From NCBI RefSeq assembly GCF_055900595.2, contig NZ_JBVWEU010000002.1: 64,000 nucleotides of DNA. One strand, given 5' to 3'. The translations under genes were made by a program, and so were the position numbers. The notes below the pieces were generated by a model, which was not told the origin of the DNA, ran no database searches, and saw only the letters and a program-made list of their open reading frames with translations. Origin of the DNA: a plasmid. This document shows, piece by piece, positions 53,149-54,615 of this stretch; position 1 is the stretch's first letter, and each line of letters opens with the position of its first letter.

Positions 53149-53442
53149 CTATCGGAGCGACGTGAAGGGCCGCCTGATAAATCTTAGCCCTCCCCAGACT
53201 GCCAGTACTCTGCGTGGCCAGACAATCAGACGACGAGGTCTGGATTTCAGCGTATACAATGCAGCCACTCCAACTGCGGGAACGATAACATTACGCCACT
53301 GATATAATGACTGCCAGCCGCGGTCAACAGGCGACGTTATCCTGAGCCAGTCTGCCTTTAACAGGCCCAGTGCCTGTCGTTGTTGCTCAATCTGTTTTAA
53401 CAGTTTCTGTTTTCGGTTCTCCTCTGTTTTCCGGGTATTCAT
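53149..53442 (-). CDS. YqjK-like small protein (97 aa)
   Basis: Size and position as last gene of a yqjD/yqjE-type cluster. Weak. Confidence 0.45.
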   Translation of the reverse strand: MNTRKTEENRKQKLLKQIEQQRQALGLLKADWLRITSPVDRGWQSLYQWRNVIVPAVGVAALYTLKSRPRRLIVWPRRVLAVWGGLRFIRRPFTSLR

Positions 53443-53840
53443 TCATCATCCCTTTTCAGACAGTTCAGGTCTTCACTGAGTTGTTTACGGGTCTCTGATA
53501 GTATCCTGCTTCCGGCAGTCTTTTGTTTAATGAAAATCACAAAAAATAATGCAATAACCAGAAAAACAGCAGAAGCACCCCCTGATATAATCAGCCGATG
53601 CTCCGGTGAGACTGACAGCAAAATGAATATCAGAAGCGATACAACCCCAAATACAGTGAATATCAGAGTTAACCCCACCATCAGCAGCAACCCCAGAATA
53701 TTTTTCTTTTCTTCTTCCAGCTCAATTGCAATAAGCTCAATGCGGGTATGAAATATTCCTGTAAGGGTGTTGAAGACACGGTGTATATTGTCTACCAGAC
53801 TACGGGATGGTCCACGTGGCTGGATATTTCCTGTTCTCAA
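53439..53840 (-). CDS. YqjE-like inner-membrane protein (133 aa, two TM helices)
   Basis: Hydrophobicity pattern and size resemble E. coli YqjE. Overlaps the downstream gene by 4 nt. Confidence 0.5.
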   Translation of the reverse strand: MRTGNIQPRGPSRSLVDNIHRVFNTLTGIFHTRIELIAIELEEEKKNILGLLLMVGLTLIFTVFGVVSLLIFILLSVSPEHRLIISGGASAVFLVIALFFVIFIKQKTAGSRILSETRKQLSEDLNCLKRDDE

Positions 53841-53923
53841 GACATCATCCTTTTTTGTTTAATCATTGTTCTGCTGAGCACGCTGCATGCTCCATTTTCC
53901 CCGGTCTGACCGGGGAAGGAGAA

Positions 53924-54277
53924 TTATTCGCTCACCTTTTCACTTACAGCATCTCCGGCCTGCTGTGCCGCTTCTTTAGTCCTGTTCCAGGCTTTTTCGG
54001 TTGTTTCTTTGGTTCTGTTCCAGGCTTTCTGTGCATCTTCCTTTACCTTATCAGTTGTACTCACCTCTCCACCATTCCTGAGACGGTTCTCCGCCTGCTG
54101 TTGTTTTTCCTCAATACGATGTTCAGCCTTGTGCGCTGCTTCTTCTGCCCGGTTAGATATTTTTTCGGCCTGCTGACTGGCCTGGTTTTTTAAGCTCCCG
54201 GTATGAGTGGACGAATCAGCCAGTACGCCTGTTGATACCAGCAGGGCAGAAAGAAACAATGTTTTGAATGCATTCAT
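53924..54277 (-). CDS. Secreted helical repeat protein (117 aa, signal peptide, repeated KAWNRTKE), YqjC-like
   Basis: Signal peptide MNAFKTLFLSALLVSTGVLA. Lys/Glu-rich repeats. Confidence 0.5.
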   Translation of the reverse strand: MNAFKTLFLSALLVSTGVLADSSTHTGSLKNQASQQAEKISNRAEEAAHKAEHRIEEKQQQAENRLRNGGEVSTTDKVKEDAQKAWNRTKETTEKAWNRTKEAAQQAGDAVSEKVSE

Positions 54278-54348
54278 ACTTTACTCCTTATACAGATGAA
54301 ACAATATTATCTGGCACAAAAATGCGGGCTGTTCGCCCGCATCTGATA

Positions 54349-54615
54349 TTATTTTCGTCCGATGAGCAGACCAATCAGCAGGCCAACACCCGCGGCGATG
54401 GAAATTGCCGCGAAGGGATTATTTTCTACATTATTACGTACAACATCCGCCGCCTCCTGGGCAGCCTGACCACCCTGTGCAGCGATTTTACGGGCAGCAC
54501 CTTTTACCTGATGTCCGCAATTATCGGTCAGTTCACCATATTTCTCCTGCACTTCTCCGGCTACTTCTTTGGCTTTATCTTCAACTTTCCCAAACATAAT
54601 ATACTCCTTCTGCAT
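54349..54615 (-). CDS. YqjD/ElaB/YgaM-family tail-anchored membrane protein (88 aa) with CsbD-like N-terminus
   Basis: N-terminal MFGKVEDKAKEVAGEVQEKYGELTD (CsbD-like) and C-terminal anchor AAISIAAGVGLLIGLLIGRK. Confidence 0.6.
   Translation of the reverse strand: MQKEYIMFGKVEDKAKEVAGEVQEKYGELTDNCGHQVKGAARKIAAQGGQAAQEAADVVRNNVENNPFAAISIAAGVGLLIGLLIGRK

Follow-up and report, generated by a model that had tools for sequence, protein, structure and literature searches.

The window analysed here, a 64,000-nucleotide (nt) stretch of plasmid DNA (contig NZ_JBVWEU010000002.1 of assembly GCF_055900595.2), carries at positions 53149-54615 a cluster of four small genes that we identify as a mobile variant of yqjDEK, in which the first gene is domain-swapped and the secreted partner is not homologous to YqjC. 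This identification is regarded as secure. The fuller reading, in which the cluster is a horizontally mobile plasmid variant of the yqjDEK membrane stress module that acts during stationary phase, envelope stress or water stress, is favoured with a probability of roughly 55%. A first-pass annotation, made from the letters alone, had likened the cluster to the chromosomal yqjCDEK module and had suggested that a plasmid copy could influence persistence or dormancy of the host. The list of open reading frames (ORFs) bears out the four genes, all co-oriented on the minus strand within 53149-54615 (Table 1). The genes are numbered 1 to 4 in their direction of transcription.

Genes 3 and 4 match the YqjE and YqjK families

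Gene 3 scored 61.1 bits against the Pfam family PF07332 (Phage_holin_3_6; cut-off 28.4) and aligned with YqjE of E. coli MG1655 at 35% identity over 125 amino acids (aa), with an expectation value (E) of 4e-16. Its hydrophobic block (residues 45-111) has room for two membrane spans, as had been noted at the outset, and its closest chromosomal relative, 48% identical, belongs to an ordinary yqj locus. Gene 4, correctly described earlier as small and basic, scored 62.7 bits against PF13997 (YqjK; cut-off 28.1) and was 34% identical to MG1655 YqjK (E 2e-16). The two reading frames overlap by 4 nt (ATGA, 53439-53442), again as first described, and the overlap is common to all relatives; genes 3 and 4 are therefore probably translationally coupled. 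Judged by these alignments, genes 3 and 4 are true homologues of the chromosomal YqjE and YqjK. A phage origin or a true holin identity was rejected for gene 3, because no relatives were found in 50,697 phage genomes or in PHROGs.

Gene 1 appears to carry a CsbD-like head on a DUF883-type anchor

Gene 1 almost certainly begins at the ATG at 54597 (82 aa) and not at the ATG at 54615, from which the ORF would span 54349-54615 (88 aa), because AAGGAG lies just upstream of the former, RefSeq uses the same start and all relatives are 82 aa long. The length of 88 aa given in the first-pass annotation is thus corrected to 82 aa. The tail of gene 1 passed the cut-off of Pfam PF19029 (DUF883_C, glycine zipper; 38.1 bits, cut-off 27). 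The head matched the CsbD family PF05532 over profile positions 2-51 of 53 with 34 bits and E 2.7e-8, a score under the cut-off of 40. Full-length relatives carry precomputed PF05532 matches, and the head contains the CsbD-type motif K-x-x-G-x-V/A-Q-E-K-Y-G-x-L-T-D. In addition, the sole similarities of gene 1 in the PDB, which were weak (E 0.14), were to the CsbD proteins YjbJ (1RYK) and PA4738 (1YWW). Both the CsbD-like region and the C-terminal hydrophobic tail that had been proposed are present, the former with a score below the family cut-off. YjbJ (69 aa) and PA4738 (85 aa) lack the DUF883_C tail, whereas gene 1 adds a membrane anchor to its CsbD-like head.

The relationship to YqjD is confined to this anchor. 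The N-terminal DUF883 domain PF05957 was not detected in gene 1 at E <= 0.1 in Pfam; the YqjD control scored 49.5 bits for it and matched both the N and the C halves of DUF883. Comparison of the gene 1 and YqjD families with hhalign gave a probability of 97.4%, limited to residues 48-82 (the last 35) with residues 1-47 outside, and the first ~23 residues of YqjD had no counterpart in the gene 1 family alignment. Full-length homology to YqjD was rejected because the likeness is limited to these last 35 residues. The initial YqjD/ElaB-like assignment therefore stands for the anchor but not for the head, where the ribosome-binding N-terminus of YqjD is missing.

The C-tail-anchored proteins YqjD, ElaB and YgaM inactivate the ribosomes to which they bind, and throughout the family DUF883 genes show synteny with yqjE/yqjK-like genes (bioRxiv 10.1101/2024.08.16.608256). 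Gene 1 shares with these proteins the glycine-zipper helix, the terminal basic pair (its C-terminus, ...IGRK, has the RR/RK motif), the yqjE/yqjK neighbours and a helix-breaking proline directly before the membrane helix, which is invariant across gene 1 and YqjD-type proteins in the alignment. It differs in the position after the proline, which is Phe, Leu or Val in the gene 1 family and Trp in the YqjD type, and in bearing a CsbD-like domain instead of the ribosome-binding N-terminal region. From domain matches, gene 1 is read as having kept the DUF883 anchor and exchanged the DUF883 N-domain for a CsbD-like head. This head swap suggests that the DUF883 tail anchor is reusable as a membrane tether for different cytoplasmic domains.

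Related fusions were also observed outside the plasmid cluster. A 269-kb contig of Samsonia erythrinae carries, at 5001-5249 of the locus examined, a 77%-identical CsbD-DUF883_C gene alone, beside a Rap1a-family gene and without yqjE/yqjK neighbours. A Klebsiella sp. contig (JBJDNH010000030.1, 4275-5249) has the order YqjE-like, YqjK-like, CsbD-DUF883_C protein; this different order indicates that the trio of CsbD-DUF883_C, YqjE and YqjK stays linked despite rearrangement.

Gene 2 encodes a predicted secreted protein with 11-residue repeats

The description of gene 2 as a secreted Lys/Glu-repeat protein was upheld by a Sec-type signal peptide, read from the sequence (...GVLA/DSS), and by a duplicated 11-aa repeat. 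The Lys/Glu unit KAWNRTKE occurs twice, within a 33-nt (11-aa) direct repeat at 53972-54028. Self-similarity of the protein reached 1.24 at lag 11 and at most 0.42 at every other lag, and the hydrophobic moment was maximal at 96-102 degrees per residue. The mature protein is very hydrophilic, with a grand average of hydropathy (GRAVY) of -1.56. No Pfam family was matched by gene 2, and an exhaustive HMMER search retrieved only 29 relatives among 1.84 billion representative proteins; gene 2 is a near-orphan.

The full-length relatives of gene 2 are secreted proteins with AW(D/N)xTKE repeats. One relative scored above the Pfam Synuclein cut-off owing to its KTKEG-type 11-mers, and another carries a BON domain, a domain that marks periplasmic osmotic-stress proteins such as OsmY. 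A weak similarity to apolipophorin III was also detected. Gene 2 shares with group 3 late embryogenesis abundant (LEA) proteins, the KTKEGV repeats of alpha-synuclein and apolipophorin III the 11-residue periodicity, the (K/R)TKE core, the hydrophilicity and the helical moment. It differs from the 11-mer repeat proteins in that gene 2 itself passes no family threshold, and from the LEA, synuclein, apolipophorin III and BON-protein group in its export by a Sec signal peptide. The likeness of gene 2 to the LEA, synuclein and apolipophorin 11-mers is a resemblance in kind and not homology.

Identity of gene 2 with YqjC was rejected. Gene 2 gave no match to DUF1090 (PF06476), for which the YqjC control scored 118.8 bits in Pfam; BLASTP between the two proteins gave E = 19, and hhalign gave a probability of 7% over an aligned stretch (residues 9-59) that begins inside the signal peptide. 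YqjC is likewise secreted, Lys/Glu-rich, helical and ~120 aa long, and gene 2 is a physicochemical stand-in for YqjC, not a homologue. Gene 2 was also rejected as the original partner of yqjDEK-type genes, because its more distant homologues stand alone. Within the plasmid lineage gene 2 is ancestral and was deleted once, since it is present in Serratia marcescens plasmids (70% identical) and missing from the plasmid of Serratia sp. PAMC26656. The deletion in the latter appears clean, leaving its two hairpins ~50 nt apart.

The cluster is a rearranged and divergent counterpart of yqjCDEK

In E. coli K-12, yqjCDEK (b3097-b3100) is a chromosomal operon, whereas the present cluster is rare and plasmid-borne. 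Both contain, in the same order, a tail-anchored DUF883-type protein, a YqjE predicted to span the membrane twice and a basic YqjK with an E/K overlap, and both contain a small secreted helical Lys/Glu-rich protein of ~120 aa. The differences are as follows: identities are only 26-35%; the head of gene 1 is CsbD-like, with an N-terminus ~20 residues shorter than that of YqjD; the plasmid's secreted protein is unrelated to YqjC/DUF1090 and is placed after the D gene, not before it; and the gap between yqjD and yqjE is 2 nt on the chromosome, whereas a terminator-like hairpin follows the D gene on the plasmid. The plasmid order is accordingly D'-X-E-K, with hairpin 1 and gene 2 between D' and E, and not C-D-E-K. 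The proposed kinship to yqjCDEK is thus sustained by alignment for YqjE, YqjK and the DUF883 anchor of gene 1, but not for YqjC or for the gene order.

A second comparison is offered by the three-gene operon PA3040-PA3042 of Pseudomonas aeruginosa, which by its published description shares a DUF883/YqjD-like gene, a YqjE-like gene, a small third gene and tight spacing (PMC11302039). It differs in belonging to the chromosomal core genome and in having no secreted repeat protein. Moreover, PA3042 has no recognised domain according to PMC11302039, whereas gene 4 is a clear PF13997 member.

All four genes are conserved under purifying selection

Selection was assessed with the Nei-Gojobori ratio of nonsynonymous to synonymous substitution rates (dN/dS), comparing the window with the E. 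coli plasmid CP134806, a Salmonella contig and a Serratia plasmid, which differ from it by 13-32% at the nucleotide level. Across all four genes dN/dS was 0.04-0.44 (gene 2, 0.10-0.20), with dS up to ~1.3, and the exact ORF lengths, the TTG start of gene 3 and the 4-nt overlap were kept in the three diverged versions. All four are real genes under purifying selection. The layout, TTG start, overlap and both hairpins were kept in E. coli IncF, Salmonella IncFIB and IncI-type, and Serratia marcescens plasmids at ~62-70% protein identity.

The plasmid location holds as well. Positions 44000-64000 of the window match the 126,291-bp E. coli plasmid AP026455 / NZ_CP128971 at full length and 100% identity; a near-identical plasmid is typed as IncFIA/FIB/FIC and conjugative. 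Carriers made up 30 of 5,426 complete E. coli genomes (0.55%), and their 34 matches were all on plasmids, with none chromosomal. A gene 3 relative was encoded by 43 of 72,556 plasmid records (Escherichia 20, Salmonella 17, Serratia 6). Some carriers were isolated from peanut, peppercorn, pond water and soil. The neighbours of the cluster vary by host and include a Tn3-family transposon, a RelE/ParE toxin pair, a bacteriocin exporter or stress genes. In the S. marcescens plasmid NZ_CP018918.1 (527-13095), the cluster lies amid cspA, psiE, a YgdI/YgdR-type lipoprotein gene, yetF and katE. A plasmid-borne recA was also observed near the cluster in this plasmid. The Salmonella IncFIB plasmid NZ_CP077700.1 (4873-7665) holds the full cluster together with an inverted duplicate of genes 2 and 3 directly upstream, which encodes identical proteins.

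Conserved hairpins and a candidate promoter accompany the genes

Hairpin 1, a terminator-like structure 6 nt past the gene 1 stop codon, was present in the minimum free energy fold, and its stem GCGGGC/GCCCGC and T-run were kept in 7 of 7 related loci while the loop varied. The stem of hairpin 2 was likewise kept, with a variable loop, in the E. coli, Salmonella and Serratia versions, and hairpin 2 was also present in the PAMC26656 plasmid. Consensus scans for sigma-70 promoters and terminators found no more sites than in shuffled sequence and did not report hairpin 1. A search of the cluster and its surroundings against Rfam gave no meaningful RNA family.

The upstream block, 40-85 nt before gene 1, reads ATGGCTCGTGCGTTGCTAAATACCAGTGGACGATATAAATGTATCGG and was conserved among the versions from E. 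coli, Salmonella and Serratia and, in part, in further ones. An alternative reading as a mini-ORF of 16-21 codons (MARALLNTSGRYKCIG...) was considered, since a number of the differences between versions lie at third codon positions. The Shine-Dalgarno sequence and frame of this mini-ORF are lost in more distant versions, and a promoter or leader is therefore preferred. As possible signs of the sigma-S dependence and CsrA repression known for yqjCDEK, only this conserved block and a GGA within a Shine-Dalgarno sequence were seen. A terminator after gene 4 was unsupported (z = -0.3) and none convincing was found in 52806-53148, up to the cia promoter, so that transcription from the cluster could read into the colicin Ia gene (cia).

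Table 1. Positions of the cluster genes, associated signals and flanking genes in the window.
Feature	Position	Strand	Description
Gene 1	54349..54597	minus	82 aa; predicted C-tail-anchored inner-membrane protein; CsbD-like cytoplasmic head; proline, glycine zipper, C-terminal RK
Gene 2	53924..54277	minus	117 aa; predicted signal peptide, residues 1-20; hydrophilic 11-residue amphipathic repeats
Gene 3	53439..53840	minus	133 aa, TTG start; YqjE homologue by alignment; inner-membrane, two predicted membrane spans
Gene 4	53149..53442	minus	97 aa, pI (isoelectric point) 11.95; YqjK homologue by alignment; strongly basic
Hairpin 1	54316..54342	minus	Terminator-like; AUGCGGGC-GAACA-GCCCGCAU then U-run
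Hairpin 2	53899..53915	minus	CCCCGG-N5-CCGGGG after gene 2, without U-run
Upstream block	54634..54680	minus	Candidate promoter/leader (inferred only): TTGCTA, 15 nt, TATAAA
PapB/FocB-type regulator gene	55182-55514		Upstream of the cluster, as is a chaperone-usher fimbrial operon
Colicin Ia gene (cia)	50924-52804	minus	Downstream of the cluster, same strand

A mobile stress module is the favoured reading

We propose that the cluster would be expressed in response to stationary phase, envelope stress or water stress, and that the gene 1 product may be made in excess, because the conserved terminator-like hairpin 1 follows gene 1. Gene 1 would insert into the membrane by its tail, possibly as a dimer as shown for the YqjD anchor, and would display its CsbD-like head on the cytoplasmic face of the inner membrane. 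The products of genes 3 and 4 would form an inner-membrane complex of the YqjE/YqjK type beside it. Gene 2 would be exported and would coat periplasmic membrane or envelope surfaces, in the manner of LEA, apolipoprotein and synuclein-type 11-mer helices. The expected outcome would be better survival of the plasmid host when it is non-growing, dry or envelope-damaged.

Several observations support a stress module, in addition to the family matches, the purifying selection, the layout shared by plasmids of different genera and the synteny of DUF883 genes with yqjE/yqjK-like genes. On the chromosome, expression of yqjCDEK depends on sigma-S and is repressed by CsrA; YqjD greatly outnumbers YqjC, and for YqjE and YqjK complex formation has been predicted (PMC10746276). 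PA3040-3042 responds to stationary phase and envelope stress (PMC11302039). Furthermore, the S. marcescens copy lies among general-stress genes, and gene 2 is very hydrophilic and 11-residue periodic, with one relative above the Synuclein cut-off and another joined to a BON domain.

Other observations weigh against this reading. Even in E. coli, YqjE and YqjK have no assigned function (PMC10746276). The role proposed for gene 2 is based on composition and periodicity and not on homology to a characterised protein; its distant homologues are chromosomal genes located away from yqjDEK-type genes, and its absence from one Serratia plasmid implies that it may be dispensable. The sigma-70 scan did not call the candidate promoter, whose spacer is 15 nt and in which no sigma-S signature is recognisable. 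In addition, the rarity of the cluster among complete E. coli genomes implies that any benefit would be niche-specific.

Alternative explanations

The alternative that survives best, though we consider it unlikely, is a ribosome-hibernation or dormancy module, in which gene 1 would tether and inactivate ribosomes and the growth-inhibiting YqjE-like protein would push the host to dormancy or persistence. Gene 1 does have the family's tail anchor, conserved proline and C-terminal basic pair. Excess YqjD arrests growth (PMC10746276), and its activity is promoted when the protein dimerises via its membrane helix; moreover, the N-termini of YqjD, ElaB and YgaM differ, yet YqjD and ElaB both inhibit translation (bioRxiv 10.1101/2024.08.16.608256). 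The activity of YqjD, however, needs its N-terminus as well as dimerisation (bioRxiv 10.1101/2024.08.16.608256), and overexpression of PA3040 and PA3041 was not growth-inhibitory (PMC11302039). The gene 1 family has neither the first ~23 YqjD residues nor the DUF883 N-domain. To our knowledge, no ribosome role has been described for CsbD/YjbJ, which counts against this explanation for the gene 1 head. Because gene 1 lacks the ribosome-inactivating N-terminal segment of YqjD, the dormancy or persistence effect suggested in the first-pass annotation cannot be transferred from YqjD by homology. Such an effect on the host is possible on indirect grounds, since overproduction of YqjE slows growth and raises persistence 100- to 400-fold (PMC4738310).

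A more elaborate version of the favoured stress-module reading seems doubtful, and more so than dormancy. Here the cluster would be a self-sufficient, transferable tolerance cassette against desiccation, osmotic stress or stationary phase, with the synuclein/LEA-like gene 2 product as a periplasmic shield of the envelope and gene 1, as a new class of tail-anchored protein, acting with YqjE/YqjK on the cytoplasmic face, possibly silencing ribosomes through its unrelated head. If so, a conjugative plasmid could tune the survival or dormancy of its host, and the YqjE/YqjK pair and the CsbD domain would gain a tractable phenotype.

Colicin release, phage defence and absence of function were judged less likely. 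It is improbable that the cluster is hitch-hiking cargo that travels with the neighbouring fimbrial operon and colicin genes and has no function at present. The cluster is rare and always found in accessory regions, and several plasmids as well as a Proteus chromosome carry it in truncated or disrupted form, all of which would fit cargo. The selection analysis already disfavours this view, with dN/dS well under 1 for all four genes at dS up to ~1.3, and lengths, starts, overlap and hairpins are kept across three genera and several plasmid backbones.

A colicin Ia release or lysis accessory, in which the 'holin-family' gene 3, upstream of a cia that has no lysis gene, would permeabilise the inner membrane, is slightly more improbable still. 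The Pfam family of gene 3 is placed in holin superfamily III, cia follows the cluster by 344 nt on the same strand with no convincing terminator between, and other copies lie near bacteriocin-related genes, namely a colicin-like pseudogene in CP134806 and an ATP-binding cassette (ABC) exporter with a C39 peptidase in Salmonella. Against this, most of the cluster was present in just 18 of the 764 plasmids that matched a 2-kb query; 628 of the 764 matched at only 80-90% identity, and the low-coverage matches listed span no more than the opening 152 nt of that query, next to the cia promoter. The Serratia and several Salmonella copies have no bacteriocin neighbour, and gene 3 has no relatives in phage genomes or PHROGs; its closest characterised relatives are members of a core chromosomal stress operon. 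We know of no holin activity shown for YqjE to date, which also counts against release.

An anti-phage or abortive-infection membrane effector module is highly improbable, because the matches of gene 3 to PADLOC two-transmembrane effector models are weak (E 2e-4 to 5e-4) and confined to its hydrophobic region, the remaining three proteins gave no such matches, the cluster contains neither a sensor nor an enzymatic component, and PA3040-3042, although first found in a transposon-sequencing (Tn-seq) screen of phage infection and responsive to it, can be deleted with phage tolerance unchanged (PMC11302039). Assignment to a known defence system was rejected, given only these weak matches in the hydrophobic region of gene 3.

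Significance

The cluster is real, conserved and mobile, but the find is modest, because database annotation already names three of the four families: RefSeq labels these genes as DUF883/YqjD family, phage holin family and YqjK-like. A full-text literature search returned no paper on the plasmid cluster, the CsbD-DUF883_C fusion or the gene 2 family. YqjE, YqjK and CsbD-domain proteins are widespread and stress-induced, with no established function. The plasmid version is compact, dispensable and mobile and can be removed or moved without touching the chromosomal genes, and it therefore offers a convenient handle on the function of the module. Should it raise survival under dry or nutrient-poor conditions, it would constitute a non-antibiotic trait aiding the persistence of IncF and IncI plasmids and their hosts outside animals; should it have no measurable effect, it would be one more accessory paralogue.

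Genomic surroundings

The cluster sits between a fimbrial operon and the colicin Ia gene. No flanking repeats or insertion-sequence ends bounding a mobile cassette were found around it. The colicin Ia-type protein encoded in the window is full length (626 aa). In the near-identical plasmid NZ_CP120558, only a 1,275-nt coding sequence is annotated at this position, and that copy may be disrupted. Within the fimbrial operon, beside the PapB/FocB regulator, a 336-aa ORF (56166-57176, minus strand) is labelled 'nuclease PIN' or 'hypothetical protein' in RefSeq, depending on the record. Its position suggests that this ORF encodes a fimbrial adhesin and that 'nuclease PIN' is a propagated misannotation.

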